From Cyanobacteriota bacterium (GTDB lineage: Bacteria; Cyanobacteriota; Cyanobacteriia; Thermostichales; Thermostichaceae): DNA of 64,000 nucleotides. Made by a program: the position numbers and the translations under genes. The notes beneath the pieces were generated by a model, which was given only the letters and a program-made list of their open reading frames with translations, searched no databases and was not told the origin of the DNA. Of this stretch, positions 128 through 33,643 are shown piece after piece (the stretch's first letter is position 1; each line of letters begins with the position of its first letter). Where the stretch lies: contig JANRIL010000042.1 in NCBI GenBank assembly GCA_033764955.1, forward strand, positions 64,001-128,000. The letters are read 5' to 3'.

Positions 128-1846
128 CTAAAACAAGAAATACCGTTGCGCCATCGGTAAAACCTCAGCTGGTTCGCAGGTCAGGAGTTCTCCATCCGCC
201 CGCACCTGATAGGTTTCGGGATCCACTTCTAAATGGGGGGTATAAGTATTGAGCTTGAGATCGGCTTTGCTGATCTCCCGGCAGTTTTTCACCGCCACCA
301 CCGGACGCTCCAATCCCAGTTGAGTGGGGATCCCCAGATCAAGGGCGGCTTGGGAGGTAAAAATCAGGCTGGTTTGGGTGAGCGCCTGCCCAAAGCTACC
401 AAACATCGGACGAGACCAAACGGGCTGGGGGGTGGGAATGGAAGCATTGGGATCCCCCATTTGGGCATAGGCGATCAAGCCTCCCTTCAACACCAATTCC
501 GGTTTGACCCCAAAAAAAGCAGGCTTCCACAGGCAGAGATCGGCTAGTTTGCCCACTTCCACGGAGCCAATCACATGGCTGACCCCTTGGGCAATCGCCG
601 GACAGATGGTGTATTTAGCAACATAGCGTTTGGCGCGATGGTTATCATGGCGAGCCGAATCCTCCGCTAGGGATCCCCGTTGTTCCTTCATTTTGTGGGC
701 AGTTTGCCAGGTTCGTAGAATCACCTCCCCCACCCGTCCCATCGCCTGCGAGTCGGAGGAGATGATGCTCAACACCCCCAGATCATGAAGGATATCCTCG
801 GCAGCAATCGTTTGAGGACGAATGCGAGACTCGGCAAAGGCGATATCTTCCGGCACCTCTTTGCTTAAGTGGTGGCAAACCATCAGCATATCGAGATGCT
901 CTTCGATGGTATTGCGGGTAAACGGGCGGGTGGGATTGGTGGAACTGGGCAAAACATTAGCCTCCCCCGCCAAGCGCAAGATATCAGGGGCATGACCGCC
1001 GCCCGCCCCCTCGGTGTGAAAGGTGTGGATGGTGCGACCGTTGATGGCGGCAATCGAGTCTTCCACAAAACCCGACTCATTCAGGGTGTCGGTGTGAATC
1101 AACCCTTGCACATCGTAGTCATCACAGATGCCCAGACAGGTGTCGATCACCGCCGGAGTGGTGCCCCAGTCCTCATGCATTTTGAGTCCACAGGCTCCGG
1201 CTTCCACCTGTTCCCGCAAGGGATCCCGGCTGGCGCTGTTGCCTTTGCCAAAAAAGCCCAGATTGAGGGGAAACGCCGCCGCCGCTTGCAGCATTTTGCC
1301 CAAATTCCAGGCTCCGGGGGTGCAGGTGGTGGCATTGGTTCCCGTGGCAGGGCCAGTACCCCCCCCCATCAGGGTCGTTAAGCCAGAGGCAATCGCCACC
1401 TCACAGATTTGCGGGCAAATGAAGTGAACGTGGACATCAATCCCACCCGCCGTCACAATCAGCTTTTCTCCCGCGATCACCTCGGTGCTAGCCCCCACCA
1501 CCATCCCCGGCGTCACCCCCGGTTGAATATTCGGATTGCCCGCCTTGCCAATCCCGACGATCAGCCCATCGCGGATCCCGATATCTGCTTTAACAATCCC
1601 CCACCAGTCCAAAATCAGCGCATTGGTAATCACCAGATCGAGGGCACCCCCCGCCCGTGTTGTAAAGGGAGACTGTCCCATGCCATCGCGGATGGTCTTG
1701 CCCCCCCCAAACTTGATTTCCTCTCCATAAACCGTGAAATCCTTTTCCACCTCGATCAGCAGAGAGGTATCGGCTAATCTCACCCGATCCCCGACGGTTG
1801 GGCCATAAGTGTTGACATAGGCGCGACGGGGAATTTCCAGAGTCAT
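128..1846 (-). CDS. ureC: Urease subunit alpha
   Basis: 572 aa; motifs [49 protein letters not shown]; ends [10 protein letters not shown]. Confidence 0.98.
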
Positions 1847-2117
1847 GGGTAGAGCCAGCCATAAAGGTCAAGGATGCTGGTTTTATACCACAGGATGTCC
1901 CCAGCCTGGATAACCAAATGATGGGATCCCTTTAGCTAGGCAGGGGAAAGTTGGAAAGATGCTTTTTTCCGGGTCGCCGTCACCCCCTTAGACTCTCTTA
2001 CATATTTATTACCCATAAGTTGTGGTCTCAGGGCTGTCCTCAGCAATGCCCAATCCCCCCTCCCATCCCTGGATAAAAGGTTGAGAGGATAGTGGGTTCA
2101 GTAAAATTTTTGGAGAA

Positions 2118-2190
2118 TACCCCCAAGGGGATTCGAACCCCTGTCGCATCCGTGAAAGGGATGTGTCCTGGGCCTCTAGACGATGGGGGC
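2118..2190 (-). tRNA. tRNA-Glu (anticodon TTC)
   Basis: Reverse complement GCCCCCATCGTCTAGAGGCCCAGGACACATCCCTTTCACGGATGCGACAGGGGTTCGAATCCCCTTGGGGGTA: 73 nt cloverleaf, anticodon stem CATCC/GGATG around CTTTCAC, GGTTCGAATCC T-arm; CCA not encoded. Confidence 0.97.
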
Positions 2191-2441
2191 AGAGGCATTT
2201 CGACAAGAACACCATCCTAGAATTAAATTTTGACGCTTGTCAATCACCAAAGATCCGCACATCTGCTTCCCAGAGGATCCCCTTCGCTGGAGGATTGGGT
2301 CATCGCCGGATCCCTGCCAACCCCAAAATCGAGGTATTCTAAAGCTGGCGTGTTGTTGATGGCTAGCCCTCCTTCAAGGCTTGTGCATCCTTTGCTCAGC
2401 GTTACGTTTGCCCCTGTTGAGTTACTGCGGAGATTTCCTTG

Positions 2442-2822
2442 ATGCGTCAGATCAACTTCCTGATTTTGTTTGCCATTTTGCTAGCTATCTCGCTCTTTGC
2501 TATGCAAAATGCCAATCCAGTAGCCGTCACCTTTGCCCCTGGAGTTTCGGTTCAACTGCCTCTTGTCTTGGAGTTATTGGCGGCGGCGGGTGTGGGCGCA
2601 ACCTTTGCCTGGATGTATGGCCTGTGGATGAAGATGCAGTTTATGGTGGAAGTCCGCGATAAAAACCGTGAAATTCAGGAGAAGGAAGGGCAGATCAATG
2701 AACTCAAGCAAATCGTAGTAGACCTAGAAACTACCGTGAAAGCCCTTCCTCCCAGCAAACGAGCCGAACCTCCTCAGGAAGAAGAAATTACCGTCAGCGA
2801 GGGATCCACTATTGCCTCCTAG
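2442..2822 (+). CDS. LapA/DUF1049-family membrane protein with C-terminal coiled coil
   Basis: Two hydrophobic segments flanking FAMQNANPVAV, followed by a charged coiled coil. Confidence 0.75.
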   Translation: MRQINFLILFAILLAISLFAMQNANPVAVTFAPGVSVQLPLVLELLAAAGVGATFAWMYGLWMKMQFMVEVRDKNREIQEKEGQINELKQIVVDLETTVKALPPSKRAEPPQEEEITVSEGSTIAS

Positions 2823-2961
2823 GCCATTTTCAGCATCCGCGTGGAGGGATCCCGAAGGCAGGCAGACAGCGGTCAATGTGAGAATTTTGTGATGAGCAGC
2901 GCAACTTTCAACCGTAACCACTATACTTGATAGGCTATTGGTTTTAGGTTCACTGTCCATC

Positions 2962-4482
2962 ATGCAAGTGACTCAGGAAAAGCGCCCAGGCAGTCAGGTT
3001 GGGTTGACCATCGTTGTTGACGCAGAACAGGTCAAAAAAATCTACGACAAAACGGTGCGAGATCTCGTGCAAAATTTTCAGGTGCAGGGATTTCGCAAAG
3101 GGAAAGCACCCCGCCACCTCGTCATGCGCTACCTGGGGAAAGAACGGGTGGTGGCCAATGTCATCGATGATTTGATCAATGATTCGGTTACCACAGCCTT
3201 TCACCAAACCAAGCTGACCCCCATCAACAAATTCCAGATCGAAAGCGATATCCCCCAACTGATCGGCAGCTTTGATCCGGCAGGGGAGTTTACCTTTGTT
3301 GGATACGTAGAGGTTTATCCTGAGGTGACGCTGGGCAACTATAAAAACTTAACCGTCAGTCCCACCCGTGTGGATATGGATCCGCAGCAGATTGCCGCCA
3401 CCATCGATCGTTGGCGGGAGCAACGGGCTACCCTCCTGCCAATTGAAGATCGTCCCGCACAACTGGGGGATGTAGCGGTTGTGGATTTCTCAGGGGTGGA
3501 TAGCCACGGGGATCCGATAGAAGGAGGCTCAGCCACTGACTTTCAACTGGATTTGCAGGAGAGCAACTTCATCCCTGGCTTTGTGGCGGGGGTTGTGGGA
3601 ATGCAACTGGATGAAACCCGTGAAATTGCCGCTCAATTTCCAGAGGACTATTTTCAAGAGGCATTGGCTGGACAGGCGGCTACTTTTACCGTCACCCTCA
3701 AAGAATTAAAGGCCAAAGAACTACCCGAATTGGATGATCCGTTTGTTCAAGAGATCAGTGATTTTCAGACCGTGGATGAACTAAAGGAGCATCTGCGCTT
3801 GCGCTTGATCCGCGAGGCTGCGGTCAAATCCAAAGACAACCTAGAAGCAGCCATTATTGAGCAGATCTTGGCGGTCACCGAAGTAGACCTGCCCGTCAGC
3901 TTGATTGAGCAAGAATCCTCTCAGTTGTTAGCGCAAAGCCTCAGCAGTATGCAGGAAAAAGGACTCGGCGTTCCAGATATTCGGCAATTTATCTCCAGCC
4001 TGCCACAGGAAACCCTTAACAATTTAATGGAACGCTTTCAACCGGAGGCCATCAACCGCCTCAAACGCACCCTAGCCTTGGGGAAAATTGTTGAGAATGA
4101 ACGTATCTCCGTCGGTGAAACGGAGCTGGAGGTGGCGGTTCAGGAAGTTTTGGACAACTACCCCCAGACTCGCCAGGATGTTAAACGATTACAGAAGATC
4201 ATTCATGAAGACTTGTTGACAAACAAGGTGATGAACTGGTTAAAATCCAACACCACTGTCACCTGGCTGGATGGAGAAGGCAACCCCATTGACGCTCCTG
4301 AGCTGGCAGAAGCCGAGGAAGAGTCGGCATTGGATTCAGCCTCCAGCATCCCTGAGGCCGAATTCACGGAAGAAGTGGAGGATAACCGCCTCACTTCTGA
4401 AGACTCTCCACAAGCATCTCTACGCGAATCTCCACCAGTAACGGGTGAGGATGTGCTGACAACCGAGGATCCTGTCCTCTAG
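2962..4482 (+). CDS. tig: Trigger factor (PPIase chaperone) with acidic C-terminal tail
   Basis: GFRKGKAP ribosome-binding signature, FKBP domain (GDVAVVDF...FIPGF...FPEDY); ATG at 2962 preferred to TTG at 2938. Confidence 0.95.
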   Translation: MQVTQEKRPGSQVGLTIVVDAEQVKKIYDKTVRDLVQNFQVQGFRKGKAPRHLVMRYLGKERVVANVIDDLINDSVTTAFHQTKLTPINKFQIESDIPQLIGSFDPAGEFTFVGYVEVYPEVTLGNYKNLTVSPTRVDMDPQQIAATIDRWREQRATLLPIEDRPAQLGDVAVVDFSGVDSHGDPIEGGSATDFQLDLQESNFIPGFVAGVVGMQLDETREIAAQFPEDYFQEALAGQAATFTVTLKELKAKELPELDDPFVQEISDFQTVDELKEHLRLRLIREAAVKSKDNLEAAIIEQILAVTEVDLPVSLIEQESSQLLAQSLSSMQEKGLGVPDIRQFISSLPQETLNNLMERFQPEAINRLKRTLALGKIVENERISVGETELEVAVQEVLDNYPQTRQDVKRLQKIIHEDLLTNKVMNWLKSNTTVTWLDGEGNPIDAPELAEAEEESALDSASSIPEAEFTEEVEDNRLTSEDSPQASLRESPPVTGEDVLTTEDPVL

Positions 4483-4615
4483 CTAGAGGGGATCTCCCCT
4501 TCTGAGGAAGTAGCCGCTACTGCCACAGAGGAAACACCAGAGGAAATATCACAGGAAACACCCGAAGAAACCGAACCATAGGTCAACCCATTTCAGCCCT
4601 TAGGAGCCGCTCTAA

Positions 4616-5620
4616 CTATGGGATCCCAAAGTGTTGAAAGGTTTGCTCCCGTTGCAAAAAGCCGTCGCCCAGCAACTCGACCCTCTGGGTGGGATCCCTG
4701 GGGGCTGGGATAACCTCCCCAATCACCTGGGATCCCGGTAGCAGGCTGACCAATCGATCGGCGGCGGTGGCGGGCATACTCAGCAACAGTTGAAAATCTT
4801 CTCCGCCATAGAGTGCCCACTCCAGGGCTTTTTCTGGGAAAACGGCCTGCAAATCAGGGGACAACGGGATCCGCGTTGGATCGATGCGGGCACCCACCTG
4901 ACTGGCCACTGACATTTGCAGGAGGGCATCAGCTAGGCCATCGCTGGTATCCATGCCTGCTTGCACCGGAGAACCGAGATCCGCTAAGAGAGGCACCACA
5001 TCAAGGCGGGGCTGTGGATATTGGTGGGCTTTGATCAGGGCTTGTCTTTGGGAAAGGGATCCCCCACTCGTGGACATATTGGGATGGAGCAGCAGTTCTA
5101 GCCCAGCCCGTGCATCCCCGTGATACCCTGTCACCAGCCAGACATCCCCCACCTGCACCGCTTTACGATAGAGAGCTTTTGCTGGATTTACCTCCCCCAA
5201 AGCAGTAATCGCCAGAAAACGGGTGGCGGAACGGCAGAGATCTCCCCCCACTAGGGATACCCGCCAGGGATAGAGTCCGTCTTGCACCCCCTGATAAAGT
5301 TGATAAACCCACTGCAACGAGGTTTCTCCCGTCAAGCCCAGCCCAATCACCAATGACATCGGTCGGGATCCCATCGCCGCCAGATCCGACAAATTGGCGG
5401 CCACCGCTCGCCATCCCACGGCATGGGCAGGGGTAGTCGCGGGGCTAAAATGCACCCCCTCCACCAAAACATCGGTTGTCACCACCAACGAGGCAGAGCA
5501 AGGGGGGAGTACCGCCGCATCATCCCCCACGACGGCGGTAGGGGAAAAACTCTGTAAAAGAGGCAGTAATCCGGCTTCCCCCACCTGATTGAGGGTTAAA
5601 TTCAGGTCAGGCCAATCCAT
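4616..5620 (-). CDS. thiL: Thiamine-monophosphate kinase
   Basis: GDDAAV, TTDVLVEGVHF, NLSDLAAMG, GGD, DTSDGL, GGEDFQLL motifs; start uncertain (ORF open to 5692). Confidence 0.93.
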   Translation of the reverse strand: MDWPDLNLTLNQVGEAGLLPLLQSFSPTAVVGDDAAVLPPCSASLVVTTDVLVEGVHFSPATTPAHAVGWRAVAANLSDLAAMGSRPMSLVIGLGLTGETSLQWVYQLYQGVQDGLYPWRVSLVGGDLCRSATRFLAITALGEVNPAKALYRKAVQVGDVWLVTGYHGDARAGLELLLHPNMSTSGGSLSQRQALIKAHQYPQPRLDVVPLLADLGSPVQAGMDTSDGLADALLQMSVASQVGARIDPTRIPLSPDLQAVFPEKALEWALYGGEDFQLLLSMPATAADRLVSLLPGSQVIGEVIPAPRDPTQRVELLGDGFLQREQTFQHFGIP

Positions 5621-5664
5621 AGAAGACTTGTGTTTTGAGTGGGTTAGCAAGGGTGCAGCCATTC

Positions 5665-7533
5665 CTAGCTGACTTGAGGTTGTAACCGCCAATCGGATCC
5701 CAACCCGATGATCCGCTCCGCCGCTTCTTGGTCAAGAGGGGGGCTAAAAAAATAGCCCTGACCATATTGACAACCCAAGACTTTTAATTGGGACAGTTGT
5801 GCCGCCGTCTCAATGCCTTCCGCCACTACTTGGATCCCTAGATTATCCGCTAACGCGATAATCGCCCGCACAATCCCGATATTTTCGGCATTGACCCCCA
5901 CTTGACTGACAAACGAGCGATCAATTTTCAGGGTTTGCACGGGGAAACGATGCAGATAGCTGAGGGAGGAGTAGCCCGTGCCAAAATCATCGATACACAA
6001 TTCGATCTGGCGCGCCCGCAACTGACTCAAAGTCGTGGTGGCAGATTCAGCATTGTCCATCATCGTGCTTTCGGTAATTTCGACCTTGAGGTGGGAACTG
6101 ATCACCCCTGTTTCCTGCAAAATCTGATCAATGCGACCCATCAGTTCAGCTTGGGCAAACTGGCGAGCCGACAAATTGACATTCATGGTAAGAGGACGAG
6201 AACGGGGATAGTGTTGCTGCCAACGGTGCAGTTGTTGACAAGCCGCCCGTAAAACCCATTCCCCAATCGGCACAATTAGCCCCGTCTCTTCGGCAGCAGG
6301 AATAAACTTAGCAGGGCTAAGCCGTCCCTGCTGGGGATGTTCCCAACGAATCAAGGCTTCAAACCCAACCATTTCCCCCGACATTAACTGAACCAGAGGT
6401 TGATAGACTAAAAAAAACTCCTGACGTTCGAGGGCATGGCGCAGATCCGTTTCCAGTTGCAGACGGTTGATGGCCTGGGTATACATCACACTTTCAAACA
6501 CCTGGTAACGGCCTTTCCCAGAGGATTTAGCCTGATACATAGCCGTGTCGGCATCCCGCAATAAATGTTCTGCCTGCTCGTAGCCCTCCCCCAGCACAAT
6601 CCCAACACTGGCATTCAAAAACACGTCCTGTTGCGCCAGCGTAAATGGCTTTTGTAGCTGTTGATGGATTTGCTCCGCGTATTGTTTGGCCTGCTCCACA
6701 TCTCGGATATGTTCCAGTAGCATGACAAATTCGTCCCCCCCTAGCCGTGCCAACAAGCCCAGGGATCCCTGTAAACAATCTTGCATACGGCGAGCCACCG
6801 CGATCAGCAGTTGATCGCCGGCAGAATGGCCAAGAGAATCATTGATCACCTTGAAGCGATCGCAATCAATAAATAAAACCGCAAACTCATACTCCCGATT
6901 TTGTTTGGCGCGGCTCAGATTGTCCTCCAAACGCTTCATCAACTGGGTGCGGTTGGGTAAATCCGTCAGGCTATCGTGTAGGACGCGGTGAAGAAGCTGC
7001 TCTTGAATCCGTTTGCGTTCCTCGATTTCCCGTTGCAACGCATGGTTAGCCAGTTGCAATTGGGCGGTGCGCTGCTCCACCCGTTGCTCCAGTTGAGCAT
7101 TCAGTTCTTGTAGTTTTTGCTGCATCCGCCGGATATTGAGTTGATTTTCCACCCGCGCCAGCACCTCTTCAAACTGGAAGGGTTTGGGAATGTAATCTAC
7201 CCCCCCCACCGCAAAAGCCTTAACTTTGTTGAAGGTGTCATCCAGAGCGCTGATGAAAATCACCGGGATCCCTTGGGTGGTGGGATCCGCTTTCAGCCGT
7301 TCACACACCTGGTAGCCGCTCATCTGAGGCATGTTGATATCCAACAAAATCAGGTCAGGAGCCGCTGTTTGTACAGCAGTTAGAGCCATCGGCCCGCTTA
7401 AGACTTTGCGAACCTTATATCCCTGTCCTGTCAGCAGGCTTTCCAGCAAACGCAGGTTGGCTAAGGTATCATCCACAACCAGGATATTGCCCTTGCTTTC
7501 GAGAGCCGGATCGGGGGGGGAGAGGCTAGTCAT
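5665..7533 (-). CDS. Response regulator with REC-GGDEF-EAL domains (c-di-GMP cyclase/phosphodiesterase)
   Basis: REC (ILVVDD...LLDINMP), intact RLGGDEF, EALIRW and [14 protein letters not shown] overlap with the upstream kinase. Confidence 0.93.
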
Positions 7534-10500
7534 GATGGCTGAGTCAGGCGGATCAACTGTTCAAAATCAAGCTGTTGGACGAGCCGCATCAGGAGGTTAG
7601 CGAGATCTTGCTGAGAGTGAGGGAGTTGCGAAATTAGGGCTAGCATCGCTTCTTCATCGGCAGAAAGAGAGGCTTGATGAAAGACATTCAACCACTGGCT
7701 GGGCTGGCTGGCCAGACGATCCGCAATTGGGGTTAAGTCAGTCAAACCAGGAGGCGGGGATCCAGAAAGGTTGGGATCGGTAGGCTCATACTGATAGGTT
7801 AACCCCAAGTGTTCAGCCATTTTTTCAAAGATTGTGGACTCTTGAAATGGTTTACGCACATAATCATCACATCCCACTGATAAAACGATCGCCCGTTCTT
7901 CCTCCATAGCACTGGCGGTCAGGGCAATGATAACAGTCGCCTGTCCTTTTAACTCAGATTTAATCTGGCGCGTAGCTTGATATCCATCCAAGACCGGCAT
8001 CCGCATATCCATCCAGATCAGATGGGGATCCCACTCTCGCCAAATGGCAATCGCCTCTTCTCCATTCACAGCGCTGCGGGTAGCAAATCCCGTCAAGCTG
8101 AGCAATTTGCTCAATAATTCACGATTTTCAGGTTTATCATCGACGACTAAGATGCGCGGTTCGTCTTGATGGGGAGCCAGCCCAATCACCCGTTGCTTGT
8201 TGATCTTTTGAGCCACAGGGGAGGAATTGGCTCTCCCAAAAGGCAAGATAAACCGGAAGGTGGATCCCTGCTGCACCTGGCTTTTGACCTCCAGTTCTCC
8301 CCCCATCATCTGCACAAAATGACGGCTGATCGCTAAACCCAACCCCGTGCCCTCATGGGATCTCAATCCCCCCTGAGCCTGCACAAACGGTTGAAAGAGC
8401 TTTTCCAATTCTAGGGGAGCAATTCCTTGCCCAGTGTCGCTAACTCGAAAGTCTAGGTCATAGGTGGCTGCGGTAGGGGAGTCGGGTGGCTGCGCCAAGC
8501 GGATCTCCAGTCTAACCTCACCCTGGTGGGTAAATTTGATGGCATTGCTGAGGAGATTGATCAAGATTTGCCGGAGCTTTCCTTCATCCCCTACTAAACA
8601 CTCCGGCACCTGACTATCGACATGGAAGGAGAGGTGCAGATGTTTAGCCTGAGCACGTATGATGAACATACTTTTCAGATGGCTGATCAAACGAACCAAA
8701 TCGAAGGTTTCAACATGCAGAAGGGTGCGTCCAGCTTCAATTTTAGACATCTCCAGCACATCGTTGATCAAATTGAGCAGATGTTCGCCACTGCGGTTAA
8801 TAATCTCCAGGTTCTCTTTTTGGGCAGCAGTTAAGTGGGGATCCCGATCCATCAATTGGCTAAAACCCAAGATGGCATTGAGAGGGGTTCGTAATTCATG
8901 GGTCATGTTAGCCAGGAAAGCACTTTTGGCTCGATTGGCGGCTTCGGCAGCTTCTTTGGCTTTGACCAATTCGGCTTCAATCAATTTCCGTTCGGTGGCA
9001 TCCGTTCCCACCGACAGAATTTCAACCAGTTGTCCTTGTTCATCAAAAATAGGACGATTGGACCAGGAAACCCAAACCCGTTCGCCATCGCTGCGGAGGT
9101 TTTCGTTCTCATTCCAAAGATAGAAATTGGGATGCACACAAATATCTTGCATTAACCCTTGCAAATCACGACCGGATGACTCAGTTGGCGGCACAATCGT
9201 ACCCACCAAGTTTTTGCCTAACAAATAGGCTTCGCTATAACCAAAGAATTTTTGTCCGAACTCATTGATAAAAGTGATTTCCCCTTTTACATTCCAGCGG
9301 AAAATAATTGAATTAGCCGCTTGCACTAGATAACGATATTTGGCCTCGCTCTGTTCTAGTTCCTCTTCGATTTGCTTGCTTTGCGTAATATCCTCAAAAA
9401 TTCCCATACTCAGTTGAGGTCTATCCTGATCGTCTAAAACTAAAGAAACACTCACCCGTAGCCAGATCATTTGGCCATCTTTGCGAATACAGCGTTTATT
9501 AATTTGATAATAGTCTCGCTCCCCTGCGACCAATTGTTCCCAAAGGATATCTTCTAAGAGCAAATCATGAGGCTCAGTATACTCACGATAGGTAACTGTT
9601 GATGATAATTGCTCCACCGAATATCCCAACATAGTTGCCAGAGCTGGATTTACCTTCAGAGTTTTTCCACAAAACTCATCCAACACAATTCCTACAACAG
9701 CGTTGTCAAAAATGGCACGCAACAGGGCTTCACTGTGCCGCAAATTAGCTTCGCGGATTGCCAATTCCTCGAGGATTTGTTTTTGCTCAGTAATATCCGA
9801 AACGATGCCCAAGATGCCGATGACGTTGCCATCTCCATCATGCAACGGCACCTTAATGCCACTGATCCAGAGGGATCGCTCATGCTGCTTGTCGATGAGC
9901 CGAAAGTCGCTATGGGCGGGGGCGTTGTTTTGCAAAACCTGTTGATCAACTTGGCGAAAGATCTTGGCCTGCTGCTCTCCCCAGGGTAGATCAAAATCAG
10001 ACTTGCCAATCATCGCGGCGGGAGAAGCCACCCCCGCTTGCCGAGCTGCCACCTGATTGCAGCCTAAATAGATGGAGTGTCGATCCTTCCAAAACACTCC
10101 CTGAGGAATGGTATCCAGCACCGTTTGCAACATCTGCTGGGATCCCCGAAGCGCCTCTTCCGCCTGCTGTCGTTCGGTTTGCTCAAGCGCCATGCTGACC
10201 AGACCCGCCATCGCGGTAGCAAACATTTTTTCATCGGCCAACCAAGTCCGCGCCCCCCCCACATGAGCACAACACAACACCCCTTCGATCTGATCCCCCA
10301 AAAAAATGGGGATATCCAGGAGGGATCCAATTCCTAGCGGTTGCAAATGATCGGGAACCAGCTCGCGGGTGCGGGGATCTTGCCAACAATCATCGGCATC
10401 AATGATTTGATTTTGGTCAAGGCTGGCAAAATATTGGGGATAGTCTTGCCGTTGCAAGGGTGGGCTTGATTCGTGCCGTTGCCGATGTCGATCAAATAAA

Positions 10501-12077: not shown

Positions 12078-12713
12078 CTATTCCGCTTGCACTTCCGACG
12101 GCAGCTCTGAGCTTGGGGTTTCTGTTTCCGCTTCTTCTGGCAAGTCCATAGCCGGTCGGCTCAGCAAAGCTGCCCACAAGCGCTGGGCACCATATTTACT
12201 GCTGTAAAAGAGCAGATCCAATAAAATTCGCAGAGCCAGTTCAGTAATTTGATCAGCGGAGCGCTCCTCGCCATCCACCATACGGCTGCGGTAGTGGGAA
12301 TGAAACTCGTCAAGATAGTCGCCGATCAGCGCCTCCCGAAAGGGGGAGCGTTCCTGGGCGACGGCGGTTTCCAGATGCTCAATCGTGGAGCGCAACTTGC
12401 TGTGCCAGTCGAGGGCAAGGTGGCAGATGATCAACACCAGGGCACGCGCCTCTTCGATATCGACTTTCTTGCGTCCACCGGAACTGCGCCGTAGAGGGTT
12501 AGCGTTGCGGAGTCGCCAGAGGTTCACCCGGTCACTCACCCACTGCTCTAATTTGAGGGCTTGAGCGGCATTTAAGACTGCCTCTGAGCTTTCCCCACTT
12601 AGGCACTCTAACCCCAGTAACAAGAGATCGAGTTGGGCTTTGATGGTGCCCGAAGCTGTTGGGATCCCTTCGGGTAACCCTAACGCCTGCATAATTGACT
12701 GGTTTGCGTCCAC
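12078..12713 (-). CDS. DUF3038-family protein
   Basis: LDLLLLGLECL, DRVNLWRLRNANPLRR, EEARALVLII, LLFYSSKYGAQRLW; start uncertain (ORF open to 13007). Confidence 0.75.
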   Translation of the reverse strand: MDANQSIMQALGLPEGIPTASGTIKAQLDLLLLGLECLSGESSEAVLNAAQALKLEQWVSDRVNLWRLRNANPLRRSSGGRKKVDIEEARALVLIICHLALDWHSKLRSTIEHLETAVAQERSPFREALIGDYLDEFHSHYRSRMVDGEERSADQITELALRILLDLLFYSSKYGAQRLWAALLSRPAMDLPEEAETETPSSELPSEVQAE

Positions 12714-13127
12714 AATGATCCTATCAACACTAACTCCCAAACCCTTATCGTCTCCTGTCTGGGAAAAACCCGCAACCCTAGCCTCCTTTCGGAAGGGGGT
12801 GAGTTGAGGGGGAAAAGACGGCCAATCGCCAGCCCAAGCCTCTGGGAAAGGAGTTGCGGCAGTCAGAGCTATCGGCATCGCCACCATCCATCGTGAAGTC
12901 CAACATCTTGACTGTAATAGGCTGACTTCATCCCAGGCGGCTAGTTGCAGAAAGTGCAACCAAATGATTCGCAAGATCTGAGCTATAGGGGGATCCCAAC
13001 TATCCATCGGCAGGGATCAAAACGGCAAAACCCTGTGGTCTAAAACCTGCCCCAGTCTATCCAACCCATGCTCTAGCTTGACGGTTTCATTCCCACTGGG
13101 CTTATCAATACCGAAGGAGGGAATCAG

Positions 13128-13215
13128 GCAGAACGTTCGCGTTCACTGGACGCAGATAACATCTTGCACCTATAGATATCCTCTCGACGGTCGGCGTGCA
13201 TGAGCGTTGTTAGCT
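13128..13215 (-). other. attC-like integron recombination site (~88 bp)
   Basis: Minus strand AGCTAAC-AACGCTCATGCACGCCGAC...GTCCAGTGAACGCGAAC-GTTCTGC: inverse core (AAC) and core (GTT) ends with imperfect inverted arms and a TGCA/TGA one-base asymmetry. Confidence 0.7.
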
Positions 13216-13368
13216 GGATGTTTTGTAGCAGAACTCTGAAAGCCGGCACATAGACATTTCCTCTAACCATTGGAATACGACCACCTAAATCTTGATATCC
13301 AAACTTTGAGAGGTTTTGGGGTTCTCAAACTAAATTGGAACGCCTATAAGCACAAAGATTTATCTATC

Positions 13369-13854
13369 TTAATTAAAAAGAAACGGCTTAACAGAAGAAA
13401 TCATACGTTTCAACTCAGTTTTGTTGTGCCTGAGAAGATCATGCTCCCATAATCCATCAGTATTATCAGAACAATTAGCTGAAAGAGCCTCTCCAATTGA
13501 TTCCAAACTCTTTCCAAGGCTGCTTCTTAACTCCTCTGGATTAGATAAGACTCCAAGGACAAACACCCTGTCCTTTACATCATCTGGAATCTGTTGCTTT
13601 ACGTAACCAAGGCGATCTTCTTCTCTATCAAAATCAATAAGTAATACAAACCGCCTATTCGGATACTTACGCATTGTAGGTATAAAGCTTGTTGTGAACT
13701 TATCTACTACTACCTTCCATCCACCGACATAGGACAAAACTTGAATTGATCGTGCATTCAGTTGAGGATGAAGCAAAAACCCATTTGCTATGTCTGAGTT
13801 CGCCTCATCTTCGGGCAACACAAGAATATGTGGCAAGTACTTGTTAACGCTCAT
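13369..13854 (-). CDS. Small TOPRIM-fold-like protein (RloB/DUF4276/DUF4435-like), putative defence nuclease
   Basis: 161 aa; HILVLPED (conserved Glu after strand 1), GG, LLIDFD (DxD), LSNPEEL; ATGA overlap with the ATPase. Confidence 0.6.
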   Translation of the reverse strand: MSVNKYLPHILVLPEDEANSDIANGFLLHPQLNARSIQVLSYVGGWKVVVDKFTTSFIPTMRKYPNRRFVLLIDFDREEDRLGYVKQQIPDDVKDRVFVLGVLSNPEELRSSLGKSLESIGEALSANCSDNTDGLWEHDLLRHNKTELKRMISSVKPFLFN

Positions 13855-14954
13855 AACTCTGTATCACCAAGGATTAAGCTATCTATAAGATCGCCACTAA
13901 TAGATACTTCACTCAGTGATCGGATCAAAGTTGGTTCTAGATGGCTTTTCCTGTCAAGCAAAAAAGTGTTTTCACTCGAAAATTTTCGGATAGCCTCCTG
14001 ATTGTGCGAAGTTGCCAAAAGTTGCCCACTATTTTTGAAAGAACGTCGTAGTGAAACAATGAAATGTCCAACCTCTGATAAAGAGAGATAGTTGTCAGGC
14101 TCGTCCCAAAAGCAAAAAAGCGGACCGTAGTGTTTGTTGGCAGCCAGGACAACTGCACAAAGGAAAAAGCATTTCTCTCCATCAGATAAGTCTTTAAATT
14201 CAATAGTAAAGTTTCTATCATTCTTTTCAAAGCTGACGATCGTACTCTTGAAGTTTCTGCTGACCGATTGATTTTGAATATCGCTAATATCAGGCATTAC
14301 TACTTGAAGATATTTCTTTATCTCTGTATAAGCAGCGGGATAACGGCTCAGCAAGCCTGAGAACCACTCTCCAAAATTTGAACCATCTCGCTTTGGCTCC
14401 AAAGTTTCACCCTGGGAGTCTCCAGTTATCAAGCTCGGAATTGGAGCTAGAATAATCATTCGTGCAAGCCAAGTTCTGAAAATACAGAGCGGATCAGTTT
14501 CCGATTGTTCCTGAATCACCGGAAGAGCAATAAGATGCCAATCCATTAAGAACTGAGCCTCTGGATTGCGTGAAGTGAGAGTGACTTGGGCTTCTTTTCT
14601 AGAGTAAACTGACTTTCCTGAAACTAGTAATTGTTCTTCAAACACCCGAAGTTCTCTGAAATCTTCTGGCAACTCCAGTGCAAGCATATACTTATACAAC
14701 TTATTTTTAATTAGCACCTCTATTTCAAATCGAATTGGGACATTAGATCTGTTAGGGGAAAAGTCTTTGGGTTGAACCAGTTGCCTAACTCTATTGACAC
14801 CTCGACCAATGCTCTGAAATAGCTCTAGTGAACTAGCAATAGTTGATTTACCTGCACCGTTTCTTCCGATTAAAAGAGCAGATGACATTTCCCTAAGAGA
14901 AAATTCAAAATTTTCCAGACATCTGAAGTTGTGTACATACAGCCTTTGGAGCAT
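13851..14954 (-). CDS. Soluble ABC-type ATPase (AAA_21/AAA_15-like)
   Basis: MLQRLYVHNFRCL start, Walker A GRNGAGKS, signature LSDGE, Walker B/D-loop FWDEPDNYL, H-switch ATSH; no transmembrane partner. Confidence 0.88.
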   Translation of the reverse strand: MLQRLYVHNFRCLENFEFSLREMSSALLIGRNGAGKSTIASSLELFQSIGRGVNRVRQLVQPKDFSPNRSNVPIRFEIEVLIKNKLYKYMLALELPEDFRELRVFEEQLLVSGKSVYSRKEAQVTLTSRNPEAQFLMDWHLIALPVIQEQSETDPLCIFRTWLARMIILAPIPSLITGDSQGETLEPKRDGSNFGEWFSGLLSRYPAAYTEIKKYLQVVMPDISDIQNQSVSRNFKSTIVSFEKNDRNFTIEFKDLSDGEKCFFLCAVVLAANKHYGPLFCFWDEPDNYLSLSEVGHFIVSLRRSFKNSGQLLATSHNQEAIRKFSSENTFLLDRKSHLEPTLIRSLSEVSISGDLIDSLILGDTEL

Positions 14955-15130
14955 AGAAAAGTAACTCTGAGTTCTTGGAAAATAAAGGTTTTTGAGACAA
15001 CCTAATTTAATCAATTTACACTATTGACAACTCTTAGCGAAGCTGTATACGGAACCCAGAGACTCTGAGGCTTCCAGCTAACAACAGGCTAAGCGGCAAG
15101 GCTGTCCTACGCCAGCAAGGGTAGAGCCAG

Positions 15131-16306
15131 CTAGCAACTGGCCAATACCCGTAAAATTTCACTGGCGGCTCGATCCAAAACCCCCGGCTCCCCTAACGCT
15201 AAGCGCATCTGCTGATAGTCCTGCTGCATCTGTTGACGGCGTTGGGGGTTAGTCAGGAGCGCCAGGGCTTCCTCCGCAATCCGCGAGGGTTGCGCCTCCT
15301 CTTGAAACAGTTCCGGCACAATCAGACGCATCTGTACCAAATTAGGGGGAGACATAAACGGGATGGAAAAATTGAGGATCGTTTTGCCAATCCAATAAGT
15401 GAGGCGGCTGACCCGATAGACCACCACCTGCGGGATCCCTAAAATCGCTGACTCCAGGTTGACGGTTCCCGATTTCGCCACAATCAAATCTGCTGCCGCC
15501 AAGATCGTCTGGTGTTCGCGGGATCCCTGTGGTTTGAGCAGGGTAATCTCAATCTCCTGCTGTTTAGCCAACTTTAAGAGAGGGGGAGCAAACCGCTCTG
15601 CCGCCAAGGGCAACCAAAACTTCACCTGAGGAAGCTGCTGTTGGAGGAGACGAGCCGCCGCGAAAATGACGGGAGCCACATGCCGCAGTTCTTGATTGCG
15701 AGAGGCCGGGAATAGCATGACCGCCATCTGATCCGCCGGGATCCCCAAATGCTGGCGAGCCTGAAGGCGATCGGGGGCGGCAGACAGAATATCGAGGAGG
15801 GGATGCCCAACCCAGCGCACATTTCCTCCGGCAGCTTCATAAAACTCGGCCTCTTGGGGAAAGATGGCCAGCATCAAGCGCATCCGTTCCGCCAATTGAA
15901 AGCTAATGCGCGAGCTAGTCGTCCAAATCCATTCTTGGGGAGCAATGTAATAGATGGCGGGGATCCCTTGGCGCTGGAGAACCGATGAAAGGCGACTGTT
16001 CACCCCGATGTAGTCTACCAAGACACACAAATCCGGTCTGTCTCTAGCTAAAAAGCGACGAATCCGCCACTCCACCCAAAGGGCGGGGCCAATAAAGGGT
16101 AGCGCCTCAACAATGCCAATCGAGCTGATCGCCGTCGTTTTTTGCAGGAGGGTGGCTCCCGCCGCCGCCATCCGCTCCCCCCCCACGGCAGTAATGCGGA
16201 GATGGGGATCCCGGCGGAGCAGGGCTTGAATTAAATAGCTCGCTTGGAGATCCCCTGAGATTTCTCCGGTGCAAACCAACAGATGGGGGGAGTTTGCCAT
16301 AACCAT
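15131..16306 (-). CDS. lpxB: Lipid-A-disaccharide synthase
   Basis: TGEISGDL, YYIAPQEWIW, VGHPLLD, FPASRNQE, KSGTVNLE; last gene of the lpx cluster. Confidence 0.95.
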   Translation of the reverse strand: MVMANSPHLLVCTGEISGDLQASYLIQALLRRDPHLRITAVGGERMAAAGATLLQKTTAISSIGIVEALPFIGPALWVEWRIRRFLARDRPDLCVLVDYIGVNSRLSSVLQRQGIPAIYYIAPQEWIWTTSSRISFQLAERMRLMLAIFPQEAEFYEAAGGNVRWVGHPLLDILSAAPDRLQARQHLGIPADQMAVMLFPASRNQELRHVAPVIFAAARLLQQQLPQVKFWLPLAAERFAPPLLKLAKQQEIEITLLKPQGSREHQTILAAADLIVAKSGTVNLESAILGIPQVVVYRVSRLTYWIGKTILNFSIPFMSPPNLVQMRLIVPELFQEEAQPSRIAEEALALLTNPQRRQQMQQDYQQMRLALGEPGVLDRAASEILRVLASC

Positions 16307-18698: not shown

Positions 18699-18965
18699 CA
18701 GAGTAGCACACTTAACCGAGTGAGTCCCAGCCAGAGGGATCCCTGGACAAGTCAGCAGAATGGTTTCCTAACATTTCACAAACCTGAGTTTTTCTCAATT
18801 TTGCCTCAGGAAGTAAATCGACCCTGGTAGCATAAGGGGGGGTAGCGCCCTGTTTTGTTCACCCCTTTGTTTGAGACGCTTAGTCTCTTAAATCCTGATC
18901 AGCCGCTTAGTTTTCAATCAAAATTTTGACGTTGGTGTGTACCGTTTTGGAATGGAGGCAGCATC

Positions 18966-19598
18966 ATGTTTAATGAAAACCCTAGAGATCCAGCAACGCT
19001 AATTAGTCAAGGATACACGTTTCAGCCCACGCAATATATTGGTCAAGGCTGGGAGATCTTGAAGCCGATTTTGGGTCTGATGATTGGGTTTACGGTAGTC
19101 AGCATCATCATTAACATTGGCTTGGGTTTTATCCCCAGAGCTGGCAGTCTACTCAGCGTCGTGATCGCTGGTCCCTTGAACGCTGGTTTTTTCATCGTTG
19201 CCTTCCGGCATATCCGTCGCCAGTCTACTGACTTTGCCCGTTTCTTTGATGGCTTTCAGAATTTTCTACCCCTATTTTTAGCCAACCTACTGGTTACCAT
19301 TTTTACGGCGATTGGCACGCTTCTGCTAATTCTGCCCGGAATTTATCTGGGGGTTTCTTATCTATTTGCGTTGCCGTTGGTTGTGGATCGCAACCTAGAT
19401 TTTTGGGAAGCTATGGAAACTAGCCGTCAGGTGGTGGGGAAAAACTGGTTTGGGGTGTTCATTTTTGGTCTGTTGCTGGTTTTAATCAATGTTGCAGGAG
19501 CCCTCCTCTTGGGAGTGGGGCTTTTGTTTACGATTCCTTTAACGACCTGTGCGGTGGTAGCGGCTTATCGGGATATTTTTGGCCTGCGTACAGCGTAG
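18966..19598 (+). CDS. Conserved integral membrane protein
   Basis: 210 aa, several TM helices, LLILPGIY and FWEAMETS motifs, GGAGG RBS. Confidence 0.8.
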   Translation: MFNENPRDPATLISQGYTFQPTQYIGQGWEILKPILGLMIGFTVVSIIINIGLGFIPRAGSLLSVVIAGPLNAGFFIVAFRHIRRQSTDFARFFDGFQNFLPLFLANLLVTIFTAIGTLLLILPGIYLGVSYLFALPLVVDRNLDFWEAMETSRQVVGKNWFGVFIFGLLLVLINVAGALLLGVGLLFTIPLTTCAVVAAYRDIFGLRTA

Positions 19599-19674
19599 TG
19601 AAAATACGGCGCAGTTCATGAAACATAGGCAGCTACTGGCTTGAGTGAGGCAATTCAGACTATTGTTGGGGTTT

Positions 19675-19959
19675 TCATTTTAGGGGGTGAACCTCTGTGA
19701 GCAATTTTTCTACACGTGCTTCATCTACGCGGGTGGTTAGTCGTTGGGATTCCTGTTGATCTCGCAGGGTTTTCGCTAACGTAAATGAAGAGGTGACGGC
19801 GTAGAGTAAGCCAATTCCGACAAATGCTTTTTGCCAAGCATCGGTTTCCAGATAAAGGATCCCGACCGTAGCTGCCGTTGTAGAAATTATAAAGGAGGCC
19901 CACACTTGTAAAACCCAGCTTGTTGTGTCTTTTGCCCGACCAATTGTAATGTGTTGCAT
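19675..19959 (-). CDS. YiaA/YiaB two-helix membrane protein
   Basis: Two TM helices then SFTLAKTLRD; AAGGAGG RBS before ATG at 19959. Confidence 0.8.
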   Translation of the reverse strand: MQHITIGRAKDTTSWVLQVWASFIISTTAATVGILYLETDAWQKAFVGIGLLYAVTSSFTLAKTLRDQQESQRLTTRVDEARVEKLLTEVHPLK

Positions 19960-20117
19960 AGGAACCTCCTTGCTCTCTTCCAATTCATGGGTCTCGTTCA
20001 CCCGATGCTTTTGATGATAGTGAGCCAATGGGGAGATAGATTGAGAAGAATGGACAGATTTATAACTGTCCACCCTATGGTTGATTGGCTGCCAATGTTC
20101 CCGATTCCTTACCCCAG

Positions 20118-20753
20118 ATGCTCATAACCTACCCCGATCCAGACAACCCCCACCCCTTAGCAGAGTTCCCTCAAGTTTGTTTTATCAAAAATACAGTTTC
20201 TAATCCCAATATTATTGTTGGAGACTATACCTACTATGATGATCCTGAAGATTCTGAAAATTTTGAGAGAAATGTGCTGTATCACTTTCCATTTATTGGC
20301 GACAAGCTAATCATTGGCAGGTTTTGTGCTCTTTCAAGAGAAATTAAATTCATCATGAATGGGGCTAACCACAAAATGTCAGGGTTCTCAACCTACCCAT
20401 TTGAAATTTTTGGGCAGGGATGGCAACAAATCCAGCCTCAACCTCATGAATATCCCTTTAAGGGGGATACGGTAGTTGGTCATGATGTTTGGATTGGCTA
20501 TCGATCGGTTATTATGCCGGGGGTTCAAATCGGAAGTGGAGCGATTATTGCCGCTAATGCAACGGTTACTAAAGATATCCCCCCCTATACGATTGTTGGA
20601 GGTTGCCCAGCCACAGCGATTCGGCAACGCTACCCAGACTCCGTAGTTGATGCCCTGCTAGCGATTGCTTGGTGGGATTGGGAGATCGAGAAAATTACTC
20701 GCAACTTGCATCATATTGTGGGCGGTGACCTGGCGGCGTTACAAGCCTGTTAA
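20118..20753 (+). CDS. Vat/CatB-family xenobiotic O-acetyltransferase
   Basis: VGDYTYYDD, NVLYHFPFIGDKLIIGRFC, MNGANH, STYPF, KGDTVVGHDVWIG, AWWDW. Confidence 0.88.
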   Translation: MLITYPDPDNPHPLAEFPQVCFIKNTVSNPNIIVGDYTYYDDPEDSENFERNVLYHFPFIGDKLIIGRFCALSREIKFIMNGANHKMSGFSTYPFEIFGQGWQQIQPQPHEYPFKGDTVVGHDVWIGYRSVIMPGVQIGSGAIIAANATVTKDIPPYTIVGGCPATAIRQRYPDSVVDALLAIAWWDWEIEKITRNLHHIVGGDLAALQAC

Positions 20754-20927
20754 TCTTGCAAAAGCATCACTCTTATGGGTTAAAGAAGAGATGTTTGAGA
20801 GCCTTTTGACCAGGGATCCGCTTTGCTCGCAATGAAACACAGAATCATTGGGGAGCAATCTTTGCGCTAGGCCAAATAAGAAAATAATGGATCCCGAAGC
20901 AAGGTAGGATCAGTAGCGCTTGAGTCT

Positions 20928-21194
20928 ATGCGGTTTCCCTATCAGTTTGATTATCTGGAGGAATCACTTGTGGAACTAGGTCTTAGTCAACGGGAACTCT
21001 CTGACCTTACCCAAAAGTCAGTGCAGTTCATTTTAAGTGGGCGTGAAGGCGAAAGTGAAGCCTTAACCCAGTACAAAGCATCTGCTGAGTTCCGTGCCGG
21101 AGTTCAACTGGCTTGTGCGGCGATGGTCTTGGTTTTAGCCGAAAATAACAGCCGGATTACCGAACAACTACAGGCATCTGGGATCCTCAAGTAG
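20928..21194 (+). CDS. Hypothetical protein (88 aa), probably co-transcribed with the downstream lyase
   Basis: Plausible helical ORF ending 16 nt before the next start. Confidence 0.6.
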   Translation: MRFPYQFDYLEESLVELGLSQRELSDLTQKSVQFILSGREGESEALTQYKASAEFRAGVQLACAAMVLVLAENNSRITEQLQASGILK

Positions 21195-21210
21195 TCAAGA
21201 TGAGCTTGCT

Positions 21211-22638
21211 ATGACCTCACCAGATCACCCACTGGATCATCCATCTGATCATCGAATTGAGCGTGACTCAATGGGGGAGCGGCAGCTTCCCAACCATGTT
21301 TATTACGGGATCCAAACCTTAAGGGCTATCGAAAACTTTCCGATTAGTGGAATCAAGCCCTTGCCCATCTATGTTGACGCCTGTTTGCTGATCAAAAAGG
21401 CTGCTGCTCAAATCAATGCCCATTTGGGTTGCATTCCAGATCAGGTGGGATGGGCGATTGTGCAGGCTGTCGATGATATCTATGGACAGGCTAGCTGGCG
21501 GGATCAATTTGTGGTGGATATCTATCAGGCGGGGGCAGGCACCTCCCACCACATGAATGTCAATGAGGTTTTGGCCAATCGCGCCCTAGAATTGCTGGGA
21601 GATCAAAAGGGCAATTATCAACGCATTAATCCCAATGATCACGTCAACTATGGACAGTCTACCAACGATGTGATTCCGACGGCGATTCGTTTGGCGGCTT
21701 TGCTGACCCTTTATCAACGGCTGCTCCCCACCCTAGTCCGCCTGACTGAAACCCTCCGAGGCAAAGCCCAACAATTTCGAGACATCATCAAGGCAGGACG
21801 CACCCACTTGCAGGACGCCGTTCCGGTGCGCTTGGGAGATGAATTTGCAGCCTATGCCTGGATTATTCAAGATCATCACCGCCTCATCTCCCAGGCTGCT
21901 TTGGAGTTGGAATGGATGGGGCTAGGGGGAAGTGCCGTGGGAACGGGGGTGAATACCCATCCCGAATATCGGGATGATGTAGTGGCTCGCCTAGCCGCCC
22001 TCACAGGATTCAATCTCAAGCCTGCTAATCACTTTATGGCGGCGATGCAAAGCATGGCTCCTTTTGTTCATTTGTCGGGGTGTTTACGCAATCTGGCTCA
22101 AGACAGTCTTAAGATTGCCAATGACCTGCGCCTGATGGATTCAGGGCCGACCACAGGGCTGAAAGAAATTCAACTGCCACCGGTACAGCCGGGATCCTCG
22201 ATTATGCCGGGGAAGTATAACCCTGTCATGGCAGAAATGCTGAATATGGTTTGTTTTCAGGTAATGGGATTAGACAGTGCTATCGGCATGGCGGCACAGG
22301 CTGGACAGTTTGAACTGAACGTGATGATGCCCTTGATTGCCTACGATCTGCTGCACAGTTTAGAGATTCTCAGCAACGCCCTAGAGGCTTTTCGGGAGCG
22401 CTGCCTGGAGGGTATTACGGCGATGCCCCAACGATGCCAAGCTTATGCCGAAAGTACCCTTTCGTTGGTGACGGCTCTCAATCCCCACATTGGTTATCTA
22501 AATGCGGCTGAAGTCGCCAAAACTGCTCTAGCGACCGGGCGCACCATTCGAGAGGTCGTCCTAGAGCGAGGCTTGATGAGTGAGGAGGAACTCGCCACAA
22601 TTTTGGATCTGGCAACCATGAGCCAGAGCTTCTGGTGA
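21211..22638 (+). CDS. aspA: Aspartate ammonia-lyase / class II fumarase family lyase
   Basis: RIERDSMG, QAGAGTSHHMN, GQSTND, GRTHLQDA, GSSIMPGKYNP; substrate (aspartate vs fumarate) not decidable by eye. Confidence 0.8.
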   Translation: MTSPDHPLDHPSDHRIERDSMGERQLPNHVYYGIQTLRAIENFPISGIKPLPIYVDACLLIKKAAAQINAHLGCIPDQVGWAIVQAVDDIYGQASWRDQFVVDIYQAGAGTSHHMNVNEVLANRALELLGDQKGNYQRINPNDHVNYGQSTNDVIPTAIRLAALLTLYQRLLPTLVRLTETLRGKAQQFRDIIKAGRTHLQDAVPVRLGDEFAAYAWIIQDHHRLISQAALELEWMGLGGSAVGTGVNTHPEYRDDVVARLAALTGFNLKPANHFMAAMQSMAPFVHLSGCLRNLAQDSLKIANDLRLMDSGPTTGLKEIQLPPVQPGSSIMPGKYNPVMAEMLNMVCFQVMGLDSAIGMAAQAGQFELNVMMPLIAYDLLHSLEILSNALEAFRERCLEGITAMPQRCQAYAESTLSLVTALNPHIGYLNAAEVAKTALATGRTIREVVLERGLMSEEELATILDLATMSQSFW

Positions 22639-22716
22639 GCTTTTAAATTCTCACAGAATTACAGCTTGCTCACGAATTATCTATGACACGCAAGGGATCC
22701 GACTCCCCGCAAATCC

Positions 22717-22762
22717 CTCCTAACAAGAGGGACTTTACATCCGCGTTCCCTCTTGTTAGGAG
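22717..22762. repeat. Perfect 16-bp inverted repeat between convergent genes (REP-like element or terminator)
   Basis: CTCCTAACAAGAGGGA (22717-22732) and TCCCTCTTGTTAGGAG (22747-22762), 14-nt loop. Confidence 0.8.
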
Positions 22763-22961
22763 AAGCTACGGCTATCGCCACGCCGCGGGAAAGGGTAGAT
22801 CTTAGGCCATAACAGACAACTCCTGAATAGGCCATATCGATAAAAAATAGAGGGATCCCACTCCCTAAGTCATGTCTATCTGGCAATAGATGATACGGAT
22901 AGATCATCTAGATCATCGTCCAGATCGTTCATACTGATCATTTTGGGATCCCTAGAGGGGG

Positions 22962-33531: not shown

Positions 33532-33643
33532 CTGAATACGCTAGAGGTAGCTAACAGCCAAACACTGGATTGGTGCGGATGATTGAGAGTTTTTAGTGCC
33601 GAGTTTGATCTGATCGGTCACCCCCCATCACCGGTAGACGGCG

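Follow-up and report, generated by a model that had tools for sequence, protein, structure and literature searches.

Integron cassettes can enter genomes outside integrons at attG sites, which have the consensus GWT and, at the Escherichia coli hotspots, a CRGM motif to the right of it (10.1101/2022.09.11.507474). In that report, 1847 of the 2469 genomes bearing single attC sites lacking integron-integrases (SALINs) had only one, and the aadB cassette, which is cited there, occupies secondary sites in RSF1010 and pRAY. The IntegronFinder survey lists the Cyanobacteria among the integron-encoding phyla and leaves single attC sites out of consideration because they may be false positives (Cury et al. 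2016, PMC4889954). Cassette insertion outside integrons has previously been known from laboratory assays and by inference from surveys of solitary attC sites, which hardly separate real cassettes from false matches. A literature search limited to the words used found no study devoted to cyanobacterial integrons, only survey-level mentions. Here, we describe a two-gene element located between lpxB and a DUF3038 gene in a 64,000-nt stretch (hereafter, the window; positions 64,001 to 128,000 of contig JANRIL010000042.1, assembly GCA_033764955.1) of a cyanobacterium of the Thermostichaceae. An initial annotation of the window, made from the letters alone, had proposed that this segment is an integron gene cassette. 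We conclude that the element very likely is one such cassette, inserted by recombination between its attC site and a site in the genome, and drawn from a pool served by the integrases of this same genome.

Comparison with the described systems places the element close to the SALIN and attG insertions described earlier (10.1101/2022.09.11.507474). As in those cases, one unit of open reading frames (ORFs) is followed by one attC site, the vicinity holds neither an integrase nor another att site, the crossover lies at G|WT, a co-oriented upstream host gene could drive the cassette, and an integrase is available in trans. In contrast to those insertions, which came from E. coli or Vibrio assays, the present case is natural and cyanobacterial, and the cassette lacks the CRGM motif, has a decayed attC site, and carries an inserted miniature inverted-repeat transposable element (MITE). 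It resembles aadB in RSF1010 and pRAY, in what the same source reports of them, in being a single complete cassette outside an integron and just downstream of a transcribed region; unlike those plasmid-borne resistance cassettes, it is chromosomal, contains two genes, and is defense-like. With the attC-site clusters that lack integron-integrases (CALINs) and the single attC sites of IntegronFinder, as given in PMC4889954, it shares an attC site without a nearby integrase in a genome with complete integrons, but a cassette boundary and a second copy elsewhere support the single site in the present case. The finding is real, well bounded, and of an already known kind, the SALIN; what makes it a clean natural example is that both boundaries fall at the predicted crossover, that a matching integrase and attC pool are present in the genome, and that a second copy occupies a different locus in another genus.

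The left and right boundaries of the cassette were read off the sequence; the left one is backed by the point at which homology to the second copy starts, and the right one is the end of the attC model match (Table 1). On the minus strand, GTTAGCTGGA is located at 15082-15073, TCCAGCTAAC at 13218-13209, and AAC-G|TTCTGC at 13137-13128. The start of the cassette is a 10-nt complement of its own R'' box, as the initial annotation had claimed, and with the flank the repeat actually runs to 13 nt (15085-15073 versus 13218-13206, also recovered as a 13-nt BLAST match). From the junctions, the cut in the target would have been at G|TT, which fits the attG consensus GWT; no target-site duplication is visible there. 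The G+C content is 0.37 to 0.42 over approximately 13200-15000, compared with 0.51 to 0.60 on both flanks, in agreement with the AT-richer interior noted earlier, and this foreign-like composition counts in favor of a cassette. The absence of the flanking motif GGGATCCC from the segment had also been remarked upon. This highly iterated palindrome is present in 83 copies in the window against 2.3 expected and is indeed missing from 12998-15431, but gaps of 2 to 4 kb without it occur elsewhere in the window, so that the gap at the cassette is not significant by itself. A 4.1-kb stretch without GGGATCCC also lies at 18744-22851 and is possibly another foreign segment.

A perfect 13-nt inverted repeat at both edges of a low-G+C segment, in a genome in which MITEs are active, could also mark a nonintegron mobile element moved by a transposase acting in trans. 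We regard this as very improbable. The right-hand repeat is the R'' box of the attC site, and a further 75 nt of family homology lies beyond it, so the element does not end there; a duplication of the target is not visible at the junctions; and the copy in another genus has the left end without the right-hand half of the attC site.

To place the 3' end of the cassette among attC sites, we used profiles seeded by similar sites from other contigs of the same genome, with the window copy always excluded. An nhmmer profile of five seeds matched 13131-13218 with an E value of 4.7e-17, and two rounds of enlargement gave E values of 1e-11 (47 seeds) and 6.5e-9 (76 seeds); taken together, the profile matches cover 13127-13220. 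The home-made covariance model R1, which was trained on 49 other sites of this genome and is distinct from the attC model of IntegronFinder, covers 13127-13217 end to end (36.2 bits; E = 5.7e-8 for the 64-kb window), which includes the interval 13128-13215 that the initial annotation had given for an attC model match. When R1 was run on the whole genome, the window site ranked 72nd of 81 (E = 3.4e-6). A search of 12900-15300 against Rfam gave 0 matches.

The family to which this site belongs comprises 81 sites at E < 0.001 in a profile search of the whole assembly. The similar sites first found on other contigs had the classic layout, in which the R'' box ends in AAC, the R' box begins with GTT, and the arms pair. 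RNAalifold returned no consensus structure from a MAFFT alignment of 49 sites. Therefore, the structure was written by hand, with 6 pairs in the R box and 15 in the L box, the latter interrupted by two single-base bulges on the 5' arm, and was then tested on the 49 aligned sites. Paired cells amounted to 81.4%, compared with 68.2% in shuffles, and cells changed on both sides numbered 159, compared with 70.6 in shuffles; for each measure, 0 of 500 shuffles reached the observed value. Double changes were seen at 17 of the 21 model pairs, and sliding the 3' partner by 1 to 3 columns as a control left 27 to 49% of cells paired. These data demonstrate that the family has conserved pairing with covariation in the R and L boxes and, with its arrays beside intI, is a true attC family. 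The two bulges on the R''/L'' arm are top-strand G and A in most of the 49 sites, which corresponds to C and T on the bottom strand, the one that recombines; G and T are the usual bulged bases of attC sites that have been studied.

A source of integrase is present in the genome. The initial annotation had noted no integrase gene in the window and had suggested a search elsewhere; with the integron-integrase model TIGR02249 (cut-off, 265 bits), we found no match on the entire contig that holds the window (C5) and two intact open frames on other contigs, at C9:19-960(-) (463 bits) and C38:63588-64529(+) (451 bits). Integrase fragments lie on C36, C4, C30, and C38, none of which is the contig of the window, and 0 of 14 control genomes contained a match above the cut-off. 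Each intact gene accompanies an array of the attC family: eight sites, all on the plus strand, follow the C9 gene at 1692-8474, and five, all on the minus strand, precede the C38 gene at 53.3 to 61.8 kb. Both arrays point away from their own intI, which is the usual divergent layout. An additional attC-like match (27.4 bits) lies at C38:64695-64787 on the plus strand (L026, 12696-12788), with the C38 integrase gene between it and the array.

In a cassette that was once circular, the first bases come from what had been the right half of its R' box, and they are therefore expected to be complementary to the R'' box of the same cassette. We examined this rule by searching for the reverse complement of the R'' 9-mer within 5 kb of the 63 sites, out of 81, whose R'' box ends in AAC at the expected place. 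The complement was present upstream of 17 of the 63 sites, compared with 3 of 63 in the downstream control, and the window site was among these 17, with a 10-nt match at a distance of 1865. The pairing of cassette start with R'' box is thus more than chance. In addition, a genome of another genus of the same family (G010) contains the same cassette, with 88% identity over 1205 nt. The homology begins exactly at window position 15082, the predicted G|TT, and the sequence before it is unrelated, which bears out the left boundary that had been proposed. The lpxB gene of G010 is on a different contig from its cassette copy, which lies between aldolase-like and pyruvate-kinase genes, provided that its two contigs join; its attC site keeps the R'' box and the 5' arm and then breaks off. 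The unit has therefore moved in one piece, with its left end where predicted. With the attC family in arrays beside integrases and the solitary position of the site, this boundary supports the identification of the segment as an integron gene cassette.

These results also bear on whether the segment is a horizontally acquired islet with ends that merely resemble core sites, a view that could draw on the failure of the proposed attC site to fold better than shuffles. Such a chance resemblance is scarcely credible in light of E values between 1e-8 and 1e-17 from profile and covariance models that exclude the site, a boundary common to G010, and the excess of R'' complements upstream (17 of 63 sites) over the control (3 of 63).

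Several observations nevertheless weigh against an inserted cassette. The window attC site keeps only 11 of the 21 model pairs (8 of 15 in the L box), joint lowest with a second window site among 59 aligned sites, and its match to the family rests mainly on sequence. For the 57 sites from outside the window, the median is 17 pairs and the minimum 12, and the seven of these that were not part of the training set keep 16 to 19. Folding of 13120-13230 on either strand is no better than that of shuffled sequences (z of about -0.45), so that the imperfect palindrome of about 88 bp reported initially is weaker than described. The R'' 7-mer AGCTAAC is one position off RYYYAAC, the consensus of the attC inverse core. 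The family was first picked up by BLAST with the window site as the query, which introduces partial circularity, and the CRGM motif is absent to the right of the cut at the inferred target. On the other hand, the arrays, the integrases, and the covariation are independent of the window site as the starting query. Three of the lost pairs belong to the R box, where target bases stand in place of the original right half. The raw minimum free energy of the site, -14 kcal/mol, ranks 21st of 81 and is not weak, which speaks against a simple label of "decayed"; the loss of pairing is visible only in the count of family pairs. The 5' arm resembles one family subtype and the 3' arm another, a mixture for which the sequence suggests no explanation beyond decay.

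The genomic setting offers a further objection. A DUF3038 gene was not present within 1.1 to 1.5 kb downstream of lpxB in the loci of 8 relatives, and in 5 of 5 relatives checked, lpxB and DUF3038 were on different contigs or 1.9 Mb apart; no empty counterpart of the locus was found among them. The cassette therefore sits at a synteny breakpoint, which would suit an origin by rearrangement: a larger CALIN or integron may once have stood here, with deletions or rearrangement between att sites leaving one cassette behind. Four contigs of the genome do carry integrase fragments, CALIN-like clusters number 12, and excision outside an insertion point can modify the chromosome, according to 10.1101/2022.09.11.507474. 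Even so, we consider a rearrangement or array-relic origin unlikely. No second attC site, intI fragment, or attI-like sequence was found within 18 kb of the cassette, the only other R1 match in the window being about 20 kb away at 33555-33640, and the left junction falls 49 nt after the lpxB stop codon in unique DNA. The flanks (99 nt on the left and 104 nt on the right) are unique in the genome and share no more words with the two attI regions than chance would give. Furthermore, gene order may simply differ among relatives this diverged, with LpxB identities of 56 to 69%; a metagenome scan with LpxB as the query found no close relative, the best of 8 loci being 48% identical. With neither another attC site nor intI nearby under a 4-kb rule, the site was classed as single, that is, as a SALIN.

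Given that the site stands alone and is flanked by DNA that differs from the attI regions, the locus is read as an integron integrase (IntI)-mediated insertion at a non-att G|TT site, and an attG-type insertion would most simply account for the SALIN. Of the two origins suggested by the initial annotation, an IntI acting in trans thus fits better than the relic of an array. In the sequence of events that we propose, the cassette would have been excised or copied from the pool served by the genome's own integron integrases, and the folded bottom strand of its attC site would have recombined with a double-stranded G|TT site in the 180-nt spacer between lpxB and the DUF3038 gene. This insertion would produce a left junction of ...G|TTAGCTGGA and a right junction of ...AACG|TTCTGC. 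Later, a MITE landed between gene 2 and the attC site, and the latter lost part of its pairing, with target bases carried in the R' box. Renewed excision of the cassette is therefore probably difficult.

The attC family extends well beyond this locus. When the 81 sites were grouped by a 4-kb rule, 14 fell into 4 clusters by an integrase or integrase fragment, 29 into 12 clusters without one, and 38 were solitary, although in an assembly of 48 contigs that is 89% complete, some of the "solitary" sites may be array ends. Approximately 38 solitary sites of 81 contrasts with the mostly single SALIN per genome in the published survey (10.1101/2022.09.11.507474). The median number of long-range pairs was 8.5 in solitary and 16 in clustered sites (P = 0.049), which is a weak hint only. 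Across this genome and 40 relatives, 20 of 41 genomes had an integrase above the cut-off and 36 of 41 had R1-type attC sites, the most being 97 (G040), followed by 57 (G039) and 35 (G034); in the complete genome G035, attC sites are both arrayed and dispersed. The case points to cyanobacteria as hosts of many integrons and scattered cassettes. The conserved attC type in 36 of the 41 genomes and the solitary position of about half of the sites in this one suggest a broader, tentative idea, which we rate as possible but short of probable: integrons in this cyanobacterial class may act as a genome-wide delivery system that scatters cassettes, defense modules included, into ordinary intergenic G|TT sites, where they would be expressed by host read-through and fixed by decay of attC.

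Table 1. Features of the cassette and its surroundings (window coordinates)
Feature	Position	Strand	Remarks
Cassette	13134..15081	-	1948 bp; begins with the TT that follows the left crossover and ends with the G of R' in attC
Left junction	15073..15085	-	Chromosomal ...GTTG, then cassette start TTAGCTGGA; forms a 13-nt inverted repeat together with the R'' box
Cassette 5' untranslated leader	14955..15081	-	No promoter-like site in a simple scan
Gene 1, ABC/AAA_21-type ATPase	13851..14954	-	367 aa; ORF open from TTG 15014; likely start ATG 14954
Gene 2, partner of no described family	13369..13854	-	161 aa; 4-nt overlap with gene 1
Degenerate MITE-like repeat copy	13246..13349	-	Family repeat of about 95 nt; between gene 2 and attC; 3' limit approximate
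attC site	13134..13217	-	R'' box, 13209-13217; L''/L' arms; G of R', 13134; the next two bases, TT, belong to the target
Right half of inferred target site	13125..13133	-	TTCTGCCTG; joined to 15082-15089, gives the inferred empty site with G|TT central
Left neighbor, lpxB	15131..16306	-	Pfam LpxB, 8.6e-88; same strand as the cassette genes; stop 49 nt before the cassette
Right neighbor, DUF3038 gene	12078..13007	-	Pfam DUF3038, 1.1e-54; start codon uncertain

The cassette most likely carries a two-gene ATPase-plus-effector module for defense or abortive infection, as judged from the models matched by gene 1. In Pfam, gene 1 matched AAA_21 (2.5e-17), AAA_15 (3.4e-13), and SMC_N, and in PADLOC, it matched AbiLi (7.3e-25), HEC-01A (2.6e-19), AriA (2.7e-16), and PtuA; no NCBIfam model was reached at its cut-off. 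The same two-gene module was observed in two other genomes, at G034:C12 (L023) and G032:C57 (L024), with 77% and 70% DNA identity, respectively, and no visible attC site. Homologues of gene 1 in G032 and G034 start at the same Met, and the overlap of the two genes is kept in the three genomes. The R1 model gave 0 matches at 4 module loci in G032 and G034, and no site was found there by eye. The module without a visible attC site in these genomes suggests that it also travels by other means.

The identity of gene 2 is less clear. It matched 0 families in Pfam, PADLOC, NCBIfam, and PHROGs, yet it has 1473 homologues at E <= 0.001; among the 120 homologues listed, all of the named ones are cyanobacterial and none has a Pfam domain. 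DUF4276 matched 1 of 42 family members (E = 0.012). No recognized effector domain (Toprim, DUF4435, DUF4276, or RloB-like) was detected in gene 2 at the thresholds used. An AlphaFold2 model (predicted local distance difference test score, 81) has a three-layer alpha/beta fold, for which Foldseek found no match in the PDB at E <= 0.001. With VIA-align, the best Z score was 7.4, lumazine synthases and an OLD nuclease were tied, and OLD nucleases scored 7.2 and 5.4, which is weak. The residues E15, D16, D74, and D76 are invariant and acidic, a set that we take to be reminiscent of a Toprim site. A predicted complex of the products of genes 1 and 2 scored 0.20 and 0.26, compared with a mark of 0.32.

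Among described defense systems, the closest are two-gene modules of an ATPase plus a nuclease, such as AbiL (AbiLi/AbiLii) and PARIS (AriA/AriB), and the OLD-type ATPase-Toprim proteins. The cassette resembles these in that gene 1 matches the AbiLi, AriA, HEC-01A, and PtuA ATPase models and overlaps a gene for a small partner. It differs in that gene 2 matches no partner model in PADLOC or Pfam and that its likeness to the OLD nuclease fold is weak and tied with unrelated folds. A defense function is unsupported for gene 2, given that it has no family match and that its fold matches are weak and tied, and this counts against the reading of the cargo as a defense module. The module, as an uncharacterized ATPase plus partner with more than 1000 homologues, is a candidate defense system.

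We also considered how the cassette genes might be expressed. A simple scan of 12900-15300 returned 4 promoter-like sites, with 3.7 expected, and 0 terminator-like sites; it found neither a promoter upstream of gene 1 on the minus strand nor a terminator after lpxB. From this arrangement, it is plausible that the cassette genes are transcribed by read-through from lpxB. On the other side of the cassette, relatives of the DUF3038 protein align only from residue 69 to 96 onward.

The repeat between gene 2 and the attC site belongs to a MITE-like family of approximately 30 copies on many contigs, with 74 to 95% identity (for example, C18:41575-41651 and C23:77894-77970). The 14 aligned full copies show terminal inverted repeats of 12 to 14 nt and an internal hairpin, and the cassette copy in G010 lacks the repeat. 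A 77-nt part of it, 13273-13349, was considered as the true attC site and was rejected, since its dispersed copies and terminal inverted repeats mark it as MITE-like and since the G010 cassette does not contain it.

Other members of the attC family showed additional features. The second attC-like site in the window, at 33555-33640 on the plus strand (R1, 34 bits; E = 2.6e-7; 11 of 21 pairs), is solitary; a convergent ABC-transporter gene (31666-33531) and a GGDEF/EAL gene (33644-35350) border the 112-nt gap that contains it. Its surroundings have a host-like G+C content, and a matching cassette start was not found within 5 kb. Elsewhere in the genome, five attC sites that are solitary or last in their cluster (C4:15558, C11:33787, C23:45267, C27:18906, and C27:112545) have in common a motif of approximately 22 nt directly after G|TT, beyond which they diverge. 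Candidate explanations for this motif are a target shared by the sites, the remnant of an attI-like sequence, and the beginning of a common element.

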